DNA of 64,000 bases from Candidatus Marinacidobacterales bacterium (GCA_965226495.1 OZ245365.1:3267516-3331515), one strand, 5' to 3'. Positions 3,757 to 64,000 are shown, numbered from the stretch's first letter. The notes: a model not told the origin generated them from the sequence alone. Program-made: numbers and translations.

Positions 3757-5148
3757 ATGCCATCTCACATCTCCGATTCGCTGATCTACCGGAGCTCATG
3801 GGGCACCGAGGAAACGCGTGCGATATTCGACGACGAGCCCCGAACCCGCGCTTGGCTCGAGATCCTGGCCGTGCTGGCGGAAAGCCAAGCGGAAGTAGGT
3901 CTCATCCCTGCCGGTGATGCCAAGAAAGTAGCGCGCGCTTGCCGAGAGATGACGCTCGACACCGAGTTCTTCGAGGAGGTCCGGAAGGGTTTCGAGGAGA
4001 CCAATCACACCACGCTCGGCCTCATTCGCGCCGTCCAACGCCGTTGCCCCGACGGCTCGGGCGAATGGGTCTACTACGGTGCCACCGTACAAGACGTCGT
4101 CGACACCTGGACCATGATGACGGTCGCGCAAGTATGGTCCATCGCGTTCCGGGAGCTGAAAGCGCTCGAAGAGAATCTCCTTAGGCTCGCGGAGACTCAC
4201 AAAGATACGGTAATGCCCGGTCGTACGCACGGCCAGCCCGGACTCCCCATCACCTTTGGTTTCAAGGCGGCAGTCTGGGCGAGCGAGACCCGACGCCACA
4301 TCGCGCGCCTCAAAGACATTAGAAGTCGCATCGGAGTGGGTCAGCTCGTCGGCGGTGTAGGCAGCATGTCCTCCTTGGGTCCGCAGGCTTTCACGTTGCA
4401 AGAGAAGTTCTGTTCTCGCCTAGGGCTTCGACCGTCGGATATCTCATGGACCACCGCGCGCGACGTCTTTGTAGAATGGTTCCAGCTGCTAACCCTCATC
4501 TCCGGTACCGCAGACAAAATGGGGCATGAGATCTACAACCTGCAGCGTCCCGAGATCGGTGAGGTGACCGAAGGTTTCGTACCGGGAACGGTGGGGAGCA
4601 TCACGATGCCGCACAAGCGCAACCCCGAAATCGCGGAGCACCTGGGCACGCTGGCGAGAGTAATTCGTCACAACACGGCGCTCCTGTCAGAATCTCAAGT
4701 TCACGACCACGAGCGGGACGGGCGAGCTTGGAAGTCGGAGTGGGCGGTTCTGGCCGAGACATCGATGGCGGCGGCAAAGCTTCTCGAGTTGACCAACACG
4801 ATGATCCAACATCTCGACGTCCACGCCGACCGAGCGCTCGCCAATCTGGAAGCGAGCAAGGGCTTCGTGCTGTCGGAAGCCGTCATGCTGAAGCTAGCGG
4901 AGCACGTTGGCAAGCAAAGCGCTCACACATTAATGTACGAGACCGCGATGAAGGCGCATGAGGCAGATCGTCCGCTAAAGGACGCCGTCTTAGAAAATGA
5001 TGCCATCCGCAAGCACCTGTCCGCGGAGACCATCGAGGCTCTTTTCGACTACCGGCGACATACAGGCTTCTGTAGCGAGCAAGTCGATCGGGTGCTGGCG
5101 CGAGCCAAGAAGGAGAGGGAGAGGGAGAGGGAGAGCGACTCGAAATGA
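3757..5148 (+). CDS. aspartase/fumarase-superfamily lyase, adenylosuccinate-lyase/PcaB-like
   Basis: GSITMPHKRNPE signature and a HGQPGLPITFG block. 463 aa. The C-terminus is an ERERERE tail encoded by a GAGAGG microsatellite. Confidence 0.8.
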   Translation: MPSHISDSLIYRSSWGTEETRAIFDDEPRTRAWLEILAVLAESQAEVGLIPAGDAKKVARACREMTLDTEFFEEVRKGFEETNHTTLGLIRAVQRRCPDGSGEWVYYGATVQDVVDTWTMMTVAQVWSIAFRELKALEENLLRLAETHKDTVMPGRTHGQPGLPITFGFKAAVWASETRRHIARLKDIRSRIGVGQLVGGVGSMSSLGPQAFTLQEKFCSRLGLRPSDISWTTARDVFVEWFQLLTLISGTADKMGHEIYNLQRPEIGEVTEGFVPGTVGSITMPHKRNPEIAEHLGTLARVIRHNTALLSESQVHDHERDGRAWKSEWAVLAETSMAAAKLLELTNTMIQHLDVHADRALANLEASKGFVLSEAVMLKLAEHVGKQSAHTLMYETAMKAHEADRPLKDAVLENDAIRKHLSAETIEALFDYRRHTGFCSEQVDRVLARAKKERERERESDSK

Positions 5149-5572: not shown

Positions 5573-6568
5573 ATGTCGACTCCCACTCGTTTCGAGCTAG
5601 GCATTTTTCCCACACCTCTCGTCGAGGCCTCGCGCTTATCGCAAGCCCTCGAGGGTCCACGCATCCTTATCAAGCGCGACGACCTCACGGGTTTCGGCTT
5701 CGGTGGCAACAAAGTACGTGGACTCGAGTATTCCATCGCGGACGCCATCGCGCAGAAAACCGATGTCGTCGTCACCGGAGCGGGCCCCCAATCGAACCAC
5801 ATCCGCGCCACCGCGGCCGCGGCGCGAGCGGCGGGGCTCGATGTGGTCGCCGTCATGCACGGTGACCGGCCCGCCGAGACGCAGGGCAATTTTCTTCTCG
5901 ATCAATGGCTAGATGTCGAGATCCGTTTCACTAACGATCCCGACCGCAGCCTCTTAGATCAGAAGATCGAGGAAGTCGCCGAGGAGCTCCGGCAATCGGG
6001 GCGACGACCGTATGTCATTCCGCGGGGCGGTTCTTCGGGACTCAGTGCCTGCGGTTACGTGCAGTGTGCCCGTGAAATGGGGGAGCAGCTCGTAGACCGC
6101 GGCGCCAGACCCCACTGGCTGGTCATCGCAACCGGGGGCGGTGGCACGCATGCGGGTCTCCTTGCCGGTTCGAAGATTTACGATGCACCGTATCGCATTC
6201 TCGGCGTCACGGTGAGCCGTCCGCCGGAGGAGTGCGAGGAACGCATCGGACGCCTGGCGCGTGAGGCGGCGAAGCTCGTCCGGCCTCAAGGTGATCCTAT
6301 CCAGATCGCTCCCGACGACATCTCTGTCCGTGACGGCTTCATCGGCGAGGGGTACGGCATTCCCTCGCCGGAAGGCATCGAAGCCATCCGCCTGCTAAGC
6401 CGGACAGAAGGAATGTTCTTGGATCCCGTCTATACCGGCAAGGCCATGGCCGGCCTTATTGGTGAGATCCGAGCGGGGCGCATTAGGAAGGGCGAGACGG
6501 TCGTCTTCGTTCACACCGGAGGAGAGCCTGCCCTCTTTGCCTACCCGGAGATCGCAACGCGTTCATGA
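5573..6568 (+). CDS. PLP-dependent enzyme, ACC deaminase/D-cysteine desulfhydrase family (fold type II)
   Basis: FPTPL...KRDDLTGFGFGGNKVRGLEY PLP-lysine motif. QSNHIRATAAAA and TGGGGTHAGL glycine-rich loop. Confidence 0.85.
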   Translation: MSTPTRFELGIFPTPLVEASRLSQALEGPRILIKRDDLTGFGFGGNKVRGLEYSIADAIAQKTDVVVTGAGPQSNHIRATAAAARAAGLDVVAVMHGDRPAETQGNFLLDQWLDVEIRFTNDPDRSLLDQKIEEVAEELRQSGRRPYVIPRGGSSGLSACGYVQCAREMGEQLVDRGARPHWLVIATGGGGTHAGLLAGSKIYDAPYRILGVTVSRPPEECEERIGRLAREAAKLVRPQGDPIQIAPDDISVRDGFIGEGYGIPSPEGIEAIRLLSRTEGMFLDPVYTGKAMAGLIGEIRAGRIRKGETVVFVHTGGEPALFAYPEIATRS

Positions 6569-55288: not shown

Positions 55289-55900
55289 ATGAAGAGATTC
55301 GGTAAATCAAACCTCGCCATCGCGATCGCCGCGCTGGCCGTAATCCTGACAGTTGCGAGTGCCGAGGCTCAAGGGTTACTCAAGGTCGGCGACAAGGCGC
55401 CCGACTTTCCGAACCCATTACCCTCGACCGCAGGAGAAAAACCGGCCGAGACCAAGATTCAGATGTCCGACTTCCTCGGGAAAAAGAACATCGTTCTCGC
55501 TTTTTACGTTGCTGACTGGACCGGTGGGTGAACGCTGCAATTCTCGTCCTACAAGGACGACATCCGGAAGTTTCTGGATGCGAACGCCCAAGTCCTGGGA
55601 GTCAGCACCGACTCCCCGTTCTCTCAAGCAAAATGGTTGGAAAGCGTGGGGTTCACGAGCAAGGACACACGTGTAACGTCGTCCGGCGACTCACTGCCCG
55701 GACTGATCCTGCTTTCCGATCGAAATGCGGATCTCGTCAAGGCCTATGCCGTGGACACTTATGATATTGATGGCGGTGTTTATGCGAAGCGAGCGACGTT
55801 CGTCATCGACAAAAAGGGGATCCTTCGCTACGTGAACTACGAGTATAAGGTCAAGGAAGACTACGAGCCTCTAATGAAGGTCCTGGCGGAGCTCGATTAG
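55289..55900 (+). CDS. BCP/PrxQ-type peroxiredoxin with in-frame UGA (putative selenocysteine) at the peroxidatic position; secreted
   Basis: One reading frame is continuous from 55289 to 55900 except for a TGA at 55529..55531. Context FYVADWTGG-U-TLQF aligns with the PrxQ motif FYPKDFTPG-C-TTE. Downstream VLGVSTDSPFSQAKW and thioredoxin-fold blocks are in the same frame. Confidence 0.6.
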
Positions 55901-56666: not shown

Positions 56667-57242
56667 CTATTCCAATTTTTCACCGAGTCGGTCGAGCTCT
56701 GGCTGCAGTTCCTCGAGCATTTCCTGAAACGGGGTACGGTTGGCCGCTCCTCCCACCGGGGCGGGGACCATGTCGAAGGCGGCGGTCGTTAGTAGGCCCT
56801 TCAACTGCGAGCGCACCGCGTCGGGGAGTCCGGTGAACTGAACTCCGTGAAGCACCGCACCCACCACCGGATCCTGCGAGCCTTCTGCCTCGCCGCTCCA
56901 GACGATGTGCCCTTTGGTCTCGAAGACGCCGAGCCGGTCGAGGCTGACCTTGAGATCGACTCTCCAACCCTTTTTCAGCAGCAGATCCGTAATAAAGCAG
57001 GCGCCCGACTCAGAGAGATCGCGGACGACCCCACAGCCAAGGGGAAAGCCGTCTTCATTGACGGCGACAGTGACAGAGTGGTTCGGGACGAATCGCCTTG
57101 CGGCGCGAGGGGGGCTCTCCTCGATCTTCGAGCTCAGGATCTCATTGAGTTTTGAGACCTCGGAAAACGTATCGAATATGGTGTTGCGACGGCAGCGGCG
57201 GTTGCGCTTTCGCCACGTTGAAACCCGTTTAAGTCGTCGCAT
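56667..57242 (-). CDS. PilZ-domain protein
   Basis: GCGVVRDLSESGACFITD...VDLKVSL PilZ pattern. Basic N-terminal tail. Confidence 0.6.
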   Translation of the reverse strand: MRRLKRVSTWRKRNRRCRRNTIFDTFSEVSKLNEILSSKIEESPPRAARRFVPNHSVTVAVNEDGFPLGCGVVRDLSESGACFITDLLLKKGWRVDLKVSLDRLGVFETKGHIVWSGEAEGSQDPVVGAVLHGVQFTGLPDAVRSQLKGLLTTAAFDMVPAPVGGAANRTPFQEMLEELQPELDRLGEKLE

Positions 57243-57497
57243 CGTCCAGAGTTACTGAAGGGGGAAATTACGGTATTCCAACCCGTCCGGGAAGTCAAGC
57301 TGTGTTCCTGGCCATGTATCCCCCCTTATTTGCGGCCCCCCGGAGGTACCACCCATTTGCCACCCATTTGGAGGACAGCTGGACGGGGCCACCGTTTTGG
57401 GATACATATCCTGCCGCACACCGCTAAAAGGGTGTGCATAGAAAACAAACATTCCGCTAATCACCAATTAATCATCAATTCCAAAGGAGAACAGAAG

Positions 57498-58397
57498 ATG
57501 CTCCGCGACCCATTACTCCTCTGCACTTTGTTGGTCCTGGGTTTCGCTCTCAATAAAGGTCGGCCGGCCCGCGCACAGGTCATCAGTCTGAAGGAAGCGA
57601 TCAACCTGCCCAAACCCCCGCCCGACCATCGGATCCCATACGGGGATGATCGGAATCAATTCGGAGACCTACGACTACCAGAGGGAGATGGGCCATTTCC
57701 CGTGGTCATTGCTATTCATGGTGGTTGCTACCAAGCAAAGTACGATCTCACTTTGCTCAGTAGCTTTTCTGCAGATCTTACAGCGGCGGGCTTTGCAACT
57801 TGGAATCTCGAGTATCGCCGCGTCGGAAACGAGGGTGGCGGATGGCCGGGTACCTTCGAAGACATCGCTCGCGGATCGGACTATCTCCGGGTCGTGGCGC
57901 AAAACTACCCGATAGATTTAACCCGCGTGGTGGCCGTTGGTCACTCTGCGGGCGGGCACTTTGTCGCGTGGTTGGCCGCTCGATCGCGTCTCCCCAATGA
58001 CAGCGTTCTCTATTCGGAAGATCCAATCTCCCTTCTAGGCGTTGTGCCGCTCGCGGGTGTCATGGACTCGCGTGCTGACCTCGAGGGTGGCGTCTGCGAG
58101 AAGGTAACGCCCAAGATGCTCGGCGGCCTACCCTCCGAAGTTCCCGATCACTACGCCCAAGCCTCCGCAATCGAGCTCCTGCCGATCGGCATACCGGTAC
58201 GGTCGATCATCGGAGACCAGGACGGTCCCGTACTGATTGACATGGTCAAGCGCTACGACGAGAAGGCAAGGGCAGCGGGCGACGATTCCGAGCTATCTAT
58301 GGTCGAAGGAGCAGGGCATTTCGAGCTGACCACGCCTGATAGCTTCGCGTGGGAGCTCGTGAAGGAAACCGTGCTTTCGCTCTTCGAGCCGAAATAA
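57498..58397 (+). CDS. secreted alpha/beta-hydrolase-fold esterase/lipase
   Basis: HGGC oxyanion motif (VVIAIHGGCY). GHSAGGH nucleophile elbow. Signal peptide. AAGGAG SD 7 nt upstream. Confidence 0.8.
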   Translation: MLRDPLLLCTLLVLGFALNKGRPARAQVISLKEAINLPKPPPDHRIPYGDDRNQFGDLRLPEGDGPFPVVIAIHGGCYQAKYDLTLLSSFSADLTAAGFATWNLEYRRVGNEGGGWPGTFEDIARGSDYLRVVAQNYPIDLTRVVAVGHSAGGHFVAWLAARSRLPNDSVLYSEDPISLLGVVPLAGVMDSRADLEGGVCEKVTPKMLGGLPSEVPDHYAQASAIELLPIGIPVRSIIGDQDGPVLIDMVKRYDEKARAAGDDSELSMVEGAGHFELTTPDSFAWELVKETVLSLFEPK

Positions 58398-58421
58398 ATC
58401 GCGGGCTGAGGGCGTCGAGTT

Positions 58422-58670
58422 TTATTGGGTTGCGGGAGGCCCGATCAACCGTCGGACGAAGGACTCTGCCCGATCGAGCGCCTCTTTGGAAACGGGACCG
58501 TGAAACTCGAGACCCAGAAACGGTCCCGCTCCCTCGACGGTGACAGTCCAATCCCCACCATGGCTCACCGCGACCAGGGCGATCTCGCCGTCCGGAACCC
58601 GCAAGGTCCTCAAGACGCTCAGACCATCCTCAAGAACTTTTTCGCTCGAGTACACATCGGGAGTCGACAT
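58422..58670 (-). CDS. hypothetical small protein (82 aa) downstream of the STAND gene
   Basis: Same strand as the STAND NTPase, 225 nt downstream of it. No recognisable motif. Confidence 0.3.
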   Translation of the reverse strand: MSTPDVYSSEKVLEDGLSVLRTLRVPDGEIALVAVSHGGDWTVTVEGAGPFLGLEFHGPVSKEALDRAESFVRRLIGPPATQ

Positions 58671-58895
58671 TTTTCGCCTCCTCTCGTACCAGCCTTCCTG
58701 GCACTCCTAGCTCCAAAGGTAGCAAGAACCGTTCCCGATGCTAATTCGTTGATTCTAAACACGCAGGCATCTGGAGGCTGCCATTGTTTGACGCCCCGAC
58801 CTCCCAAAATGTGTGAACCTTGTGACGCGTGATAAGGAATCCGCGTGCGGGGGATCACAATCGATCAAATAGGTGTACCTAGTGGCGGCGGGACA

Positions 58896-61622
58896 CTAGC
58901 TGGCTTTGATGCGTGCCAGCGCATCCTGGGCGGCGCGCGCCACATCAGGATCGGATTCTTTCGCCGCGGATTGGAGCAGCGGGACGCTACTGTAAGAGCG
59001 CAAGTTTCCAAGTCCGATGAGCGCTTGAACTCGCGAGGCGAGGGCTTCGTCGGCGGCCGCCCGCTCCAACAACCCGACGGCCCATGAGCCACCCAGCGAT
59101 TCCAAACAGAGACAACCGATGCGCTGATGGATCGCCCCGTCGCTTCCGAGCGAGCGCTCGATCGCACCGTGCAAGCTGGCTGCCGCAGAGTCCGCGGAAA
59201 GCGCCTCCCGGTAGCACTCGGACGCTAGAACGAGATCGCGTTCGAGAAGGCCGTTCACCAAATCGGAGCTGTCTTCCAACATCCCACTGAGGAAAGCGAG
59301 CGCACCATGAAAAGGACCTCGCTTGAGATTGTGGGGACGATCATCTAGCGAGGAATCGTGTATCCACTCGGCGGCGTCGACAAGCTCGAGTAACTCGCTG
59401 GTGCTATTCGACCGGAGGGCGTAGGCAGTCAGAAACTCCTGGATGGCAACGTTCGGGAACGAGAACGCGTGCGGACCTCTTAGCAATCTCGTTTTGCTCA
59501 ATGCCGCAAGCAGCTCTTCTGAGCTGGTACGGCCGAAATGGCTATCGAACCAATCCTGGGGTTCGCTCATCTCGCCTTCGAGGTGCTCGCGTCGAAGCGA
59601 TGTTCTACCCGCACCACTCATCCGAAGGGCAAGTGCGGGAAGAACAATTTCCCTGATCTCCGAGGAGAGCGACTGACCCGCTACTTGGTAAAAGGCCGCG
59701 TAGAGGCCGCTCCGAGTGTAAGGAACGCTCGAGCCCTCCCGCCAGAGTCGCCGCGCCATCGCCAACACCTGGGGGTTTCCGCCTCGGGAACCCATGGCCT
59801 GCAAGAGCTGCCGATACAGGACCCGAGCCTGCTCGACCCTCATCGCCTCGCCTTCCACGAGGAAATCGGCCGCTTCCCATTCGGCGAAAGGGAGAAGCTC
59901 GAACCAGTTCGGAATGTCGAGCGACAGCGGTACCGGCCTCCGCGCAGCAGCGACGAAGCGGTTCAAGGAAAATCGCTGCATGAAGGTGTTCAGCTTCTCG
60001 GTCAAGCGCCTCGAGGAGTCAGCACTCATTTCGTCCAAACCGTCCATCAGGAAGAGGAACCGACCCTCCTCGAGATCACTCAGGAAAAGCTTTCGGTCGA
60101 ATCCTTCTCCGACGAAATCCAACAGCTCTGCCCCGGCTGGAAGATCAGAGAGGCTCACATAAACCGGAAGAGGCGACTTGGCACTGTAGGAAAGAATGGG
60201 TTGGGCAGAGTCGTAAAAGAGCTTGAACAACGTCATGCTCTTGCCCGCGCCGGGCTCTCCCAACACCAGCAACCGCTGAAAACGGCGGGCAAGCTCCGGG
60301 GCGTCTTGAGGCTGCCCGAGGAAATCGGCTGCGTGAAGGTAGGATGACATCGGGTCTTGACGCGGCATCCATTTTAGGAGCTGGTGCGCGTAGCGCTCGG
60401 GTTTGGGCCATATTCGATTCAAGGTCTCTCGGAGCCGGCGGCGATAACGCCCCTCCGAAAGCTCGTACACCTGGCGAACCCGCTCCCCCGCCCGACTGTG
60501 GAAGACCGCGGGATCCTTCTGCGAGACGAACAGTGCGGGTGCCAGCCATGCGCTTTCGAGTGGAAAGAAGGATCCCAATTCTCGCCGGGCTTCGGAAAGG
60601 CACGCGTCGACGGGCTTGAGAGTCGCAAGGGCACGGTAGAACGACTCCGCGAATCGGACGGCCAAGTCTTCCGGCCTCAAACCGCCCAAACTCACTAGCG
60701 CCGGAACGTGTTCCAGCAGCTGCCCAGCAAGCTCCGGGCCCACACCGACCACGCCCTCACCGCCGCTGAATACCATCAGGCGCGGGCTTCCGTCTTGAAG
60801 GAGGCTCACCAGCTGCGCCGGCGTGTTGAACTCACTACCACCGTCCGCGTGAACCAGTCCTATCTTGGCTTCACCAGAGGTCCAGCGACTCGACGCCAGC
60901 AAATGCAAGACGTCCACGTTGCGCCGCACGAGACCATGCAGCCGATCCCGCGTGAGACCGTCCTGACCGATTGCTCGCCCCTCTTCCTGCACCGAGACCA
61001 GCCCTTCTCCCTCCAGGCGACGGAGAGCTTCGCGTATGGCGACCGCCTCTTGACGGATCCGGGGAGCATCTCGTTCATCGGAAAACTCGGCTGCGAGAAG
61101 TACTTTCAGTGGGAGTTCGAGGGGAACCGAAGCCGGCTCTTTGGCGTGCTCTACGAAACGAACAAGCGTCGTTTCGGGAGAATTCCCGAGGAAGGCAGCC
61201 CGACGGGTATCGTAGAGGCACTCCCAAGGCAGACGAGCGACGTTCGGGGGATCGATTTTGAGTCGAATGAGCAGCCGAGTTTCGGTGGGGCGAGTCTGCT
61301 CGCGAAGGTGGATGTAAAGCCGCAGGAGGTCGCCTTGGAACAAGGAGTCGAAGAGCCTGGCCCCCACATATTGGAGCTCTTCGGGGTTGAGCTCGTCAAG
61401 GGTGTCGACGTAGCCAACGAATCGCGGGTCGTCGAAGGGCATGTGGATCTGCACCGGTGGCGTCGAACGGCCAAACTCATCCCAACCCACGGCCGAATAA
61501 AAGCCGGGTGTCGGGTCCGTCCATACCGCTATTAGAAGATCCTGGTGCTCAAGCTCCCTCATGTTGTTCTTCCCGGCGCGCCAAGAAAAGGACCACAGAG
61601 AAACCGATCCCTGCGAGGACAC
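58896..61622 (-). CDS. STAND-class NTPase: CHAT-like (probably inactive) - NACHT - HEAT repeats
   Basis: CHAT-like block VDVLHLLASS...PRLMVFSGGEGVVG (His kept, Cys position is Gly). Walker A LVLGEPGAGKSMTL. Walker B FLFLMDGLDEM. C-terminal HEAT/PBS-like repeats (ALIGLGNLRSYSSVPLL...DPDVARAAQDALARI). Confidence 0.7.
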   Translation of the reverse strand: MSSQGSVSLWSFSWRAGKNNMRELEHQDLLIAVWTDPTPGFYSAVGWDEFGRSTPPVQIHMPFDDPRFVGYVDTLDELNPEELQYVGARLFDSLFQGDLLRLYIHLREQTRPTETRLLIRLKIDPPNVARLPWECLYDTRRAAFLGNSPETTLVRFVEHAKEPASVPLELPLKVLLAAEFSDERDAPRIRQEAVAIREALRRLEGEGLVSVQEEGRAIGQDGLTRDRLHGLVRRNVDVLHLLASSRWTSGEAKIGLVHADGGSEFNTPAQLVSLLQDGSPRLMVFSGGEGVVGVGPELAGQLLEHVPALVSLGGLRPEDLAVRFAESFYRALATLKPVDACLSEARRELGSFFPLESAWLAPALFVSQKDPAVFHSRAGERVRQVYELSEGRYRRRLRETLNRIWPKPERYAHQLLKWMPRQDPMSSYLHAADFLGQPQDAPELARRFQRLLVLGEPGAGKSMTLFKLFYDSAQPILSYSAKSPLPVYVSLSDLPAGAELLDFVGEGFDRKLFLSDLEEGRFLFLMDGLDEMSADSSRRLTEKLNTFMQRFSLNRFVAAARRPVPLSLDIPNWFELLPFAEWEAADFLVEGEAMRVEQARVLYRQLLQAMGSRGGNPQVLAMARRLWREGSSVPYTRSGLYAAFYQVAGQSLSSEIREIVLPALALRMSGAGRTSLRREHLEGEMSEPQDWFDSHFGRTSSEELLAALSKTRLLRGPHAFSFPNVAIQEFLTAYALRSNSTSELLELVDAAEWIHDSSLDDRPHNLKRGPFHGALAFLSGMLEDSSDLVNGLLERDLVLASECYREALSADSAAASLHGAIERSLGSDGAIHQRIGCLCLESLGGSWAVGLLERAAADEALASRVQALIGLGNLRSYSSVPLLQSAAKESDPDVARAAQDALARIKAS

Positions 61623-61782
61623 AAGTGCGTCATTCTTAGGAGTTTGCGGTGCTTGTTACACCATTTTGAGTTATTTGTCAAGCTGTGCGGCAGAAGGCCT
61701 TTATTTTCAACGGAATCCACTGTGCCACGTGGGTACTCTGTGGCTCATGAGTGGCGGCCTCGCACCCGCCTGATGGACGTAG

Positions 61783-62562
61783 CTATCCCTTGAAATTGGC
61801 CTGCAGGATGTTCATCCGGTAGTCGTCGCCTCCCATTTGGACATCTCTGCACATTTCGTAGAGTCGCGAACGAAGACGAGAAGTGATCCTCTCCGACAAG
61901 GTATATTCTTCGGTCGGCGGCCGTTTGCCGAACCCGGGGGCCGGCGCGGAGCGAGCCGCGACCCGACGGTCTGAGAAATTGGTTGTGATGACGGTGAGCT
62001 TCTTTTCGTTGTACCGGTGGTTCAGGATATAGAAGAGCGTATCGAACACCCACAGCGTCGAGTTTTCCCCACCGAGATCGTCGAGCACCAGCAGCTCCGA
62101 TTCGAGTACCGGTTGCAAGACTCCCATCTCCGTAACCGAAGTTTCCGGACTATACGATTCCTTTATCTCCCGCAGCAAGGAGCGGAAATCGGCGAAGCGA
62201 GTCCTGGTCCGAATACGTCTCTCCACGAGCACGCGCCTGCAAATGGCAACGGCGAGATGGGTTTTCCCAACCCCGGGAGGACCGCTAAACAAAAGACCGG
62301 CCTCGTTATCCGGGAACTCGTCGGCCCACTTTCCGGCAATCTTGCAGGCCTGGGCCAACTTAGGGTGGAGCAGCTCGAAGGGCTTTCCTCCACTCCGTTC
62401 ATCAAACGCACAGTCGCGATACCGAGAGGGGACCCGGGCCTTCCCCATCGCGGAGCCGGTGGTGTCACCCAACCAACAATCGCACCGCTCTACCCGAACG
62501 ACACCGTCCCGTTCGGCTCGCCTCCACGACGTGCCATCACAAATCGAACAAGGTTCGCTCAA
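61783..62562 (-). CDS. DnaC/IstB-family AAA+ ATPase with an N-terminal zinc ribbon
   Basis: CSICDG...CDCW zinc ribbon. SRYRDCAFDE. Walker [15 protein letters not shown]. Walker B LLVLDDLG. TTNF sensor. 4-nt overlap with the upstream sigma gene. Confidence 0.7.
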   Translation of the reverse strand: MSEPCSICDGTSWRRAERDGVVRVERCDCWLGDTTGSAMGKARVPSRYRDCAFDERSGGKPFELLHPKLAQACKIAGKWADEFPDNEAGLLFSGPPGVGKTHLAVAICRRVLVERRIRTRTRFADFRSLLREIKESYSPETSVTEMGVLQPVLESELLVLDDLGGENSTLWVFDTLFYILNHRYNEKKLTVITTNFSDRRVAARSAPAPGFGKRPPTEEYTLSERITSRLRSRLYEMCRDVQMGGDDYRMNILQANFKG

Positions 62563-63416
62563 TTGAGGAAACCTCGCATGGCTTGGGCTGTGTTCGAGCG
62601 ACGCAACTTTGCGATAGCCTTCGATTCGATCTGCCGAATCCTTTCCCGCGAAAGTTGCAGCCGATCCCCAATTTCCTGAAGGGTCTGCGGCTCCTCGCCG
62701 TCCAGGCCGAAGCGAAGTCGGACGACTTCTGACTCTTTGGGACCGAGCTCGGTCAGAAGTTTTTGGATCTGCGCCAGGAAAGACTTCTGAATCAGCGCCA
62801 CCTCAACCTGGGGATCGGTCCCCTGCTCCAAGTGGTCGCTCAACTCGAGGTCTCCGTCCTCGCCCAACGTTTCCGATAGTGAGACATCGCTGCCGGAGAT
62901 AGCGATAAAGGTGTTCACCGCGTCGAGCGAAATGTCGAGAGTCGCAGCTACTTCTTCGGGAGCCGGCGTGCCCTTGTCATCTTTGTCCGCCTTAAACTCG
63001 CGTTCGATCCGACTGAAGGCCGTTGCCATGCGTGACGGGACGCTAAAGACGCGCTTGTGCTCGGAGACCGCTTGAATGATGGATTGTCGAATCCACCAGA
63101 CCGCGTAGGAAATGAATTTGACGTTGCGGTCCGGATCGAATCGACGCGACGCCTGCATCAATCCCAAGTTCCCCTCGTGAATGAGGTCAAAGAATGACAG
63201 CCCCAAACCTCTGAAGCGTTTCGCATAACTCACACCAAATCTCAGGTTGCACTCCACGAGCCTTCGGAGCGCGTCCTCGTCCCCTTGCCGAATTCGGCGT
63301 CCCAGCTCTTTCTCCTCCTCTGGAGTGAGGCGAGGAAACTTGCCGATCTCACGTATGTAGTAGCCGAGCGTTTCCGCGTCGTCGGATGAAAACCCCCATC
63401 CACGTGCGACCGGCAT
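62559..63416 (-). CDS. sigma-70 family (RpoD/RpoS-like group) RNA polymerase sigma factor
   Basis: Regions 1.2 to 4 are present: YIREIG, FDLIHEGNLGLMQASRRFD, ISYAVWWIRQSI, TLQEIGDRLQLSRERIRQIESKAI. The start is uncertain (63416 or further upstream). Confidence 0.8.
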   Translation of the reverse strand: MPVARGWGFSSDDAETLGYYIREIGKFPRLTPEEEKELGRRIRQGDEDALRRLVECNLRFGVSYAKRFRGLGLSFFDLIHEGNLGLMQASRRFDPDRNVKFISYAVWWIRQSIIQAVSEHKRVFSVPSRMATAFSRIEREFKADKDDKGTPAPEEVAATLDISLDAVNTFIAISGSDVSLSETLGEDGDLELSDHLEQGTDPQVEVALIQKSFLAQIQKLLTELGPKESEVVRLRFGLDGEEPQTLQEIGDRLQLSRERIRQIESKAIAKLRRSNTAQAMRGFLN

Positions 63417-63715
63417 GGCCCGATCATGCCGCAGGTGGGCCGGTCTGGGCAAGGCCTGTCGGGCCACGTACTCGTCGCAAGTTTTCACCCTTTTGTAAGG
63501 AGGGAAGTGGGGCATTCTCCCCTTTTTCATGAAGGGACAACAGTGTGGGAGTGTGCTTGTTTTGCCTGGTGCGCCGACAACATAGCCTATCGCTCTTCTT
63601 AGTTTAGTGTCCGCGCGTTTCCTGCCAAGACAGCGAGTGAAACGGGTTGGTAGGCCGAGGGACGGCCCAAGCAAGGAGACCGAGATAAATCGGTACCCCT
63701 AGGCGTCCTCAGTTG

Positions 63716-64000
63716 TCAGGAGTCTCGGGAAACTTTGACCAAATCACGGGGAGGAAGCTTTACTAGAGCGTTCTTCACGCGATCCTTCCACCCTTCCTCC
63801 TCTTTCACCATTTCCTTGCGCACGTACTCGATAAATTCGCTCACCTCGACCTGCATCTGCTCCATCTTCAGCCGCATGTTCAGAATAATCTCAACCCCGG
63901 CGAGGTTCACACCCAGATCGCGCGTGAGATTGAGAACCGTTTCGAGTTGACGAAGATCCTCTTCCGAGTAGAGCCGGGTGTTGCCCTCAGTGCGAGAAGG
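63716..64000 (-). CDS. MerR-family regulator, HspR-like (3' partial; continues beyond the window)
   Basis: TRLYSEEDLRQLETVLNLTRDLGVNLAGVEIILNMRLKMEQ matches the MerR HTH and dimerisation helix of HspR-type repressors. Confidence 0.55.
   Translation of the reverse strand, partial: PSRTEGNTRLYSEEDLRQLETVLNLTRDLGVNLAGVEIILNMRLKMEQMQVEVSEFIEYVRKEMVKEEEGWKDRVKNALVKLPPRDLVKVSRDS

Follow-up and report, generated by a model that had tools for sequence, protein, structure and literature searches.

Defence proteins of the bNACHT and Avs types are usually patchy in their distribution and horizontally transferred. They protect against phage in experiments and carry active effectors, such as PD-(D/E)XK nucleases, and one of them, bNACHT25, requires DnaJ for its activation and signals through this host chaperone (PMC12169576). 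Caspase-like N-terminal domains have already been described on bacterial STAND proteins (PMC13581612), and defence and non-defence STAND clades are interspersed with one another (PMC13581612; bioRxiv 10.64898/2026.09.02.748808). Here we examine a STAND gene of this general build in Candidatus Marinacidobacterales bacterium, which lies in a stretch of 64,000 nucleotides (GCA_965226495.1, OZ245365.1:3267516-3331515; hereafter the window, with positions counted from its first letter). A preliminary description of the locus had grouped this gene with an upstream DnaC/IstB-like ATPase gene and a small downstream open reading frame (ORF) as a candidate conflict or signalling system. With a probability of about 0.55, we take the STAND protein to be a lineage-specific NLR-like ATPase that has been inherited vertically within the class Vicinamibacteria, with a pseudo-CHAT domain serving as scaffold or adaptor and a probably endogenous ligand.

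The STAND protein consists of an N-terminal CHAT module, a central NACHT NTPase and C-terminal HEAT-type repeats. This tripartite STAND/NLR architecture, as proposed in the preliminary description, is confirmed because the Pfam, Foldseek and profile matches agree. In the Pfam scan, CHAT (PF12770) scored 28.5 bits against a cut-off of 24 and HEAT_2 (PF13646) 28.7 bits against a cut-off of 27.7, and a precomputed NACHT (PF05729) hit is present in most of the STAND orthologues. The same scan detected no DNA-binding output domain in the protein. The structural comparison used an AlphaFold2 (AF2) model built on 21 orthologues, with a mean predicted local distance difference test (pLDDT) score of 76. 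In Foldseek, the central part of this model matched NOD2 (5irn, E 9.6e-11) as well as NLRC4 (4kxf) and NLRP2/7/9, and more weakly Avs4 (PDB 8dgf). The N-terminal part matched SAVED-CHAT (8tl0) and the TPR-CHAT of Craspase (7zoq/7y8t) at E-values of 3e-7 to 7e-7. Apart from Foldseek, a weak N-terminal match to HetF was found. Positions 805-887 of the family profile matched alphaRep/HEAT_2 repeat proteins (E 1.4e-19). The four strings quoted in the preliminary description (GEPGAGKS, LFLMDGLDE, VLHLLASS and FSGGEG) were all located in the sequence. The length of 908 amino acids (aa) given with them was wrong; the protein has 888 aa, as judged from the starts of its orthologues, all of which begin (MxxxE[HY]) where the window protein has MRELEH at 61562, and from a public contig of 6.3 Mb on which exactly this 888-aa product is already a called gene.

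Judging by its intact motifs, the NACHT NTPase looks functional. The alignment was checked for degeneration of the Walker motifs, which proved intact: K441 in Walker A, D507 and [D/E]510 in Walker B, and R541, the sensor-1 Arg (AARRP), are each kept in 60/60 family members. The NACHT part of the AF2 model has a pLDDT of about 75-85. The ADP-contacting His of the winged-helix domain (FxHxxxQEFLAA, on our own reading of the canonical motif) is not conserved; the motif reads FSFPNVAIQEFLTA, and the orthologues have N, S or H at the His position. Between the CHAT and NACHT modules lies an Arg-rich linker whose consensus, SEGRYRRRLRETLNRxWPKPERY, is nearly invariant: 17 of its 71 columns are invariant, and it has the lowest ratio of nonsynonymous to synonymous substitution rates (dN/dS) in the protein (0.03-0.04). 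Linker residues 359-368 and 382-424 have a pLDDT below 50 and are predicted to be disordered. The linker may be an interaction or autoinhibitory segment.

The only candidate effector of the STAND protein is its CHAT domain, and this domain lacks the catalytic dyad. Clan-CD peptidases (caspase, legumain, gingipain and separase types) carry a His-Gly ... Ala-Cys signature in which the catalytic His precedes the Gly. When the N-terminal 360 residues were aligned with canonical CHAT proteins, H220 (DVLHLLASS) coincided with the His that comes first in the hLHFxGHG motif and is structural, the catalytic His aligned with Ser224, and the catalytic Cys of VVLNAC (VVLNACxS) aligned with Gly268. Residues at these positions were counted with hmmalign over all retrieved sequences, comparing family members with other CHAT relatives. 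At position 224, all of about 50 family members lack His (D 24, S 10, E 6, G 5, P 3, T 2), which 135 of about 143 other relatives have; position 268 is Cys in 0 of about 55 family members (G 48), as against 118 of about 141 other relatives. We therefore regard the CHAT domain, on the strength of this alignment, as a pseudo-protease in which both catalytic residues are replaced in all orthologues scored. The preliminary description had noted the missing Cys and a probably inactive protease, correctly in both respects, and had considered the CHAT His to be present, which was a mistake, the residue in question being the structural His220. The inactivation is stronger than had been supposed because both residues of the dyad are gone. 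Position 115, within the family-specific motif PWECLYDT, is Cys in 46/51 family members and in only 5/139 other CHAT relatives, the others having Y, F or L, and Cys115 could have taken on a compensatory or relocated function.

A search of 5.8e9 clusters returned about 60 full-length relatives of the STAND protein (45-90% identity, all of about 888 aa), beyond which the scores fall abruptly to CHAT-only matches at E 1e-24. Every named member of this family comes from the class Vicinamibacteria (Acidobacteriota). A profile search of 1.84e9 representatives (50% identity) gave 2-3 full-length entries plus fragments, with the next matches at 230 bits or less, and a single-sequence query against genome contigs gave one locus only (L001). 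At least 125 columns are invariant across the orthologues, and the mean column identity is 0.61 in the CHAT core and 0.67-0.76 elsewhere. Between the window and the related contig L004, dN/dS is 0.078 for the whole STAND gene and 0.048-0.17 for neighbouring genes. By domain, the values are 0.09 for the CHAT core (0.24 in a second pair), 0.11 for the HEAT domain and 0.04 for the linker. These values point to strong purifying selection in every domain, and variability in the HEAT 'sensor' does not exceed that of the other parts, there being no hypervariable sensor.

The STAND gene is single-copy and sits at one fixed place. On eight contigs that carry it (L002-L006, L008, L013 and L014; up to 7 Mb), one gene order is shared: dnaK, dnaJ, hspR, sigma factor gene (not on all contigs), dnaC-like gene, creatininase gene (on some contigs), STAND gene, variable accessory genes, ECH (on some), rarA, spoU, greA and a membrane protein gene. 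We also collected 34 metagenome loci, 26 of which were informative in having at least 418 bp of upstream sequence; in 26/26 of these the STAND gene is preceded on its own strand by the dnaC-like gene, with or without the creatininase gene, and further upstream by hspR, dnaJ and dnaK wherever the contig is long enough. The remainder of the window belongs to the core chromosome, coding for Lon, PBP1, Lnt, arginine and purine lyases, RarA, SpoU and GreA. Orthologues thus occur in a conserved housekeeping context, a pattern that had been named beforehand as one that would speak against a conflict system. Pairwise identities of the STAND proteins correlate with those of the DnaC-like neighbour (r = 0.87, falling to 0.68 when the closest pair is left out), and no horizontal-transfer signal was found for the STAND gene in the co-divergence and locus comparisons. 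As far as these comparisons go, the gene is inherited vertically at a single chromosomal site in Vicinamibacteria.

The gene is also dispensable, as it has been lost in one locus and has decayed in others. In L009 it is absent and the flanks are intact. In L041-L043 (6001-8403), three samples of one population, it carries several stops and frameshifts and a deletion of aa 606-671, again between intact flanks, and the lesions are identical in the three metagenome samples. In L001 (10025-11305), a Ca. Marinacidobacterales metagenome-assembled genome (MAG) whose neighbouring genes are 80-95% identical, an internal deletion of 1.37 kb removes aa 256-705, and a stop lies in the PWEC motif. Frameshifted or truncated copies elsewhere (L013, L014, P0363, P0366 and others) were considered as signs of recurrent pseudogenisation and set aside: their source is long-read MAG assemblies, and several of them match the window protein at 100% identity as far as the frameshift. 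Most of the frameshifted public copies are probably assembly errors, and real decay is likely limited to L041-L043 and the L001 deletion. Separately, several public copies (L013 at about 6000-6030, L014 at about 5975, P0361, P0055 and P0052) are split by frameshifts within aa 254-276, close to the L001 deletion breakpoint; these splits could reflect long-read MAG assembly error or a mutational hot spot.

Taken with the loss of the dyad and the many frameshifted public copies, the pseudogenised or deleted copies of some lineages might suggest that the protein is a relic in decay, derived from an NLR with a CHAT protease that has since become inactive and without function. Set against this are about 60 full-length orthologues down to 45% identity with their invariant columns, a dN/dS of 0.08 and intact NTPase motifs, as well as the origin of most frameshifted copies in long-read MAGs, where they are likely assembly errors. 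We find the relic explanation scarcely credible, and it is largely refuted because the selection data contradict it.

The defence reading was approached through models of known defence genes and through the gene's surroundings. In PADLOC, the STAND protein gave only DrmC at E 0.027, and in NCBIfam only EruA at E 0.014, with 13.6 bits against a cut-off of 1000. PADLOC found no defence genes among its neighbours in the window; the hits that neighbours did give (sigma factor to MzaA, RarA to TRIP13/IetA, DnaC-like protein to DrmD) were dismissed as general similarity of the sigma-70 or P-loop type. Collections of plasmids and phages held no full-length relative of the STAND protein, only domain-level matches at 26% identity or less. 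The multi-gene system of defence type that had been envisaged in the preliminary description is therefore not supported, given the lack of PADLOC or NCBIfam defence model hits, the housekeeping locus and the lack of mobile-element relatives; the signalling system that it offered as the other possibility is plausible.

These results bear on the possibility that the STAND protein is an antiviral or abortive-infection NLR of the Avs/bNACHT kind which has become fixed in the lineage. Its HEAT repeats would sense a conserved phage protein, and the cell would be killed or arrested through a non-canonical effector, which would be a protease acting in trans that the pseudo-CHAT domain recruits, or else a relocated Cys115/His220 pair. 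Several observations favour such a role or weigh against our own interpretation. The tripartite architecture is common to Avs4 and bacterial NACHT proteins (PMC12169576, PMC13581612), and the class of CHAT-STAND proteins is generally read as conflict-related (PMC13581612, PMC8195603). Two close architectural relatives, P0244 (CHAT-NACHT-HEAT, 1022 aa) and P0218 (CHAT-NACHT-FHA, 982 aa), keep an active dyad. In the window family itself, the near-invariant C115 and the invariant H220 leave a relocated catalytic pair conceivable. The NACHT match of the window protein to Pfam, at 26.3 bits, is marginally under the gathering cut-off of 26.7. Finally, the gene borders a variable slot that separates two conserved blocks, and the loss and decay seen in several lineages also fit an accessory or immune gene. 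On the other side stand the single fixed locus, the co-divergence with neighbouring genes and the lack of any horizontal-transfer signal; the strong and uniform purifying selection, sensor included; the lack of defence neighbours, defence model hits and mobile-element relatives; and the family-wide absence of canonical effector chemistry. We consider an antiviral role unlikely, though deserving to be kept in mind. A signalling scaffold is favoured over an antiviral system because the gene occupies a fixed chromosomal site and descends vertically, and is not part of a mobile defence island.

How such a scaffold would operate can be sketched from the way in which STAND proteins work, from which we infer ligand binding, oligomerisation, an adaptor role and a non-immune signal. 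The HEAT-like repeats would bind a conserved ligand or protein, which is probably endogenous because the sensor does not diversify. Binding would lift the autoinhibition of the NACHT module, ADP would be exchanged for ATP, and the protein would oligomerise. The pseudo-CHAT domains clustered in this way, being devoid of clan-CD His/Cys cleavage, would then offer another protein an induced-proximity scaffold or adaptor, much as the inactive caspase-like domain of cFLIP acts through caspase-8.

The features of the locus are collected in Table 1. ORF calling recovered the three ORFs of the preliminary description on the minus strand, together spanning its coordinates, and all three are real. In transcription order, the minus strand of the window reads hspR-like gene, sigma factor gene, dnaC-like gene, STAND gene and 82-aa ORF, with 220 bp between the dnaC-like and STAND genes and 225 bp between the STAND stop codon and the 82-aa ORF.

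Table 1. Coordinates of the features discussed, in the window unless another locus is named
Feature	Residues or motif	Position	Strand	Remarks
STAND gene	888 aa, ATG at 61562	58896-61562	-	stop codon 58896-58898
Maximal STAND ORF	908 aa, GTG at 61622	58896-61622	-	
N-terminal extension and pseudo-CHAT domain	aa 1-357	60492-61562	-	
PWECLYDT motif	aa 112-119	61206-61229	-	family-specific
Codons including Ser224	aa 220-225	60888-60905	-	Ser224 at catalytic His position
Codons including Gly268	aa 264-269	60756-60773	-	Gly268 at catalytic Cys position
Arg-rich linker	aa 358-428	60279-60491	-	
NACHT module	aa 429-750	59313-60278	-	nucleotide-binding, helical and winged-helix domains
Walker A	GEPGAGKS	60237-60260	-	
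Walker B	LFLMDGLDE	60030-60056	-	
C-terminal HEAT-like repeats	aa 751-888	58899-59312	-	PBS-lyase/alphaRep type; putative sensor
STAND promoter, sigma-70 type	TTGACA, 17-nt spacer, TAACAA	61648-61681	-	conserved among aligned loci
STAND conserved 5' untranslated region	GCAAACTCCTAAGAATGA, then hairpin (61593-61618)	61593-61647	-	
Conserved ORF	82 aa	58422-58670	-	
DnaC/DnaI/IstB-like AAA+ ATPase	259 aa	61783-62562	-	N-terminal four-Cys Zn ribbon
Sigma-70 family factor	284 aa	62559 to about 63413	-	
HspR-like MerR regulator	C-terminus	63716-63910	-	cut by window end
Redoxin/AhpC-TSA-like ORF	204 codons	55289-55900	+	signal-peptide-like N-terminus
Creatininase insertion		L002 8993-9832; L006 8993-9868		also L025-L030, L034, L036, L045, L046, L048
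dnaK promoter element		L004 about 4360-4400		equivalent sites in L002, L003, L006, L008, L009, L011, L013

The STAND gene appears to be transcribed on its own, from a promoter of housekeeping type and separately from the dnaC-like operon. The CTTGACA and TAnnAA elements of this promoter occur in the same register in 6/7 aligned loci, with a spacer of 17-18 nt. A consensus scan for promoters and terminators gave a number of calls not above shuffle expectation; the STAND promoter went uncalled in this simple scan because its -10 hexamer ends in A and not in T. In distant loci, the GCAAACTCCTAAGAATGA motif of the 5' untranslated region takes the forms GCGAACTCATAACG and CCGATTTCATAACG. No Rfam family was matched within 57000-64000 at E <= 1, the 5' hairpin included.

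The DnaC-like ATPase, which was supposed to be a partner of the STAND protein, is what the preliminary description took it to be: it has a Pfam match to IstB_IS21 (1.7e-13), its four Zn-ribbon Cys and Walker motifs are invariant, and its AAA+ motifs are intact. The partnership itself does not stand. This ATPase has 3021 homologues, as against about 60 for the STAND protein, and the start of its gene overlaps the sigma factor gene by a few bases in the window and L004, and hspR in L003 and L008. The same operon is found without a STAND gene in a more distant Acidobacteriota lineage (L011/L012, 45% identity) and in the Vicinamibacteria-type locus L009, whose flanks are otherwise identical. The DnaC-like ATPase therefore belongs to the heat-shock operon and is no partner of the STAND protein, since the operon includes it even where there is no STAND gene. 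The operon as such, dnaK-dnaJ-hspR(MerR)-sigma70-dnaC-like, is conserved in at least two Acidobacteriota lineages (window 61783-64000, minus strand; L004 4449-9724; L011 5554-10795), with each gene beginning a few bases before the preceding one ends, and its sigma factor gene has been lost in one Vicinamibacteria subclade.

Downstream, the 82-aa ORF is, by its conservation, a genuine gene of one subclade, and a neighbour of the STAND gene rather than a demonstrated partner. Nine homologues were found, with a dN/dS of 0.10, and the model of its product has five beta-strands and one helix; Pfam and PADLOC gave no match and the fold search none of significance (best hit E 0.23). Among the loci compared, it is present in L001, L004, L006/L007 and L018 and absent from L002, L003, L005 and L008. 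In L001 it has remained intact despite the decay of the STAND gene there. The earlier claim holds for the existence of a same-strand gene and is not supported for its membership of a system. One subclade has a creatininase-family gene between the dnaC-like and STAND genes, and downstream a GNAT acetyltransferase gene stands where others have the 82-aa ORF. Accessory metabolic genes have a hot spot in the slot that separates the dnaK operon from rarA. With no specific co-occurrence, a separate promoter in the 220-bp gap and the creatininase insertion in one subclade, the idea of a three-gene system is not supported.

The constant vicinity of the heat-shock operon raises another possibility, namely that the STAND protein is a chaperone- or proteostasis-coupled sensor which, by analogy with bNACHT25, would monitor DnaK/DnaJ or the load of misfolded proteins. 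It adjoins the dnaK-dnaJ-hspR-(sigma)-dnaC-like operon in every STAND locus with enough upstream sequence, a bacterial NACHT protein that needs DnaJ provides a precedent (PMC12169576), and in both the dnaK and the STAND promoters an (A/G)CTC element follows CTTGACA. Common to the dnaK promoters is AACTTGAC(A/T)-N7-(G/A)CTCAnAT..TAT, a HAIR-like inverted repeat lying over the promoter and conserved between classes. The spacing of this element (TTGACA-N7-GCTCA) is not reproduced in the STAND promoters, and co-regulation of the STAND gene by HspR is unsupported because its promoters differ in this respect. Near the STAND gene, scans of the window and loci for HAIR (CTTGAGT-N7-ACTCAAG) and CIRCE that allowed up to 3-4 mismatches found no convincing site. 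The separate promoter and the creatininase gene inserted between the dnaC-like and STAND genes also speak against a coupling. Moreover, the adjacency to dnaK can be explained by a single ancestral insertion, because the flanking blocks are syntenic in L009, where the STAND gene is missing. As for the precedent, the effector of bNACHT25 is a different one, and PMC12169576 does not describe bNACHT25 as linked to dnaJ. We hold such a sensor to be doubtful, somewhat more so than an antiviral role. Less probable again, and frankly speculative, is the pair of bolder proposals that the protein is a pseudo-caspase-adaptor NLR tied to DnaK/DnaJ/HspR proteostasis as an endogenous 'guard' or stress sensor, or that the relocated Cys115/His220 is a new active-site arrangement of the CHAT domain.

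Elsewhere in the window, the redoxin/AhpC-TSA-like ORF contains a single in-frame TGA (55529-55531) exactly at the position of the peroxidatic Cys (FYVADWTGG-TGA-T). A hairpin, UCGUCC-UACAA-GGACGA, begins 14 nt downstream of this codon, and the ORF split by TGA is likewise kept in L004 and L001. Its product is a probable selenocysteine peroxiredoxin-like protein, as read from the sequence.

Overall, the STAND family is a counter-example to the usual picture of a mobile immune sensor with an enzymatic effector, in that a dead caspase-like domain is kept under strong purifying selection at one housekeeping locus throughout an acidobacterial class. It could show in what way pseudo-proteases act as adaptors in prokaryotic NLR signalling, and also how STAND clades switch between immune and non-immune roles. 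It further cautions against calling 'defence' from domain architecture alone.

Among known proteins, the window family is nearest to uncharacterised bacterial ones such as P0218 and P0244, with which it shares the order of N-terminal extension and CHAT, NACHT and repeat or sensor part (the profile alignment covers positions 38-799 for P0218 and 59-858 for P0244), the LPWE motif, Walker A and B and HEAT_2-type repeats. Both of these score far lower (about 185 and 145 bits) than members of the window family do among themselves (> 1300 bits), and both have the HFIGHG and NAC[QD] motifs that are absent from the family. With bNACHT25 and Avs4 it has in common the logic of effector, NTPase and sensor and the NACHT/STAND fold; it differs from the bNACHT/Avs proteins by its dead effector domain, one fixed locus, vertical descent and lack of PADLOC or NCBIfam defence hits. 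The caspase-like CHAT fold is likewise that of Csx29/TPR-CHAT of Craspase, SAVED-CHAT and HetF, whereas both catalytic residues have been lost in the window family and its activation module is NACHT and not TPR/Cas7-11 or SAVED. A parallel can be drawn to cFLIP (mentioned in PMC8195603), an inactive caspase-fold domain that is kept under selection and works by protein-protein interaction. This is a functional analogy only, as there is no sequence relation beyond the fold and the window protein is a putative adaptor. MalT and the AfsR/SARP-type regulators differ in having DNA-binding output domains, of which none is detectable in the window protein; like it, they are STAND switches that combine vertical inheritance, a fixed place on the chromosome and conserved sensors.

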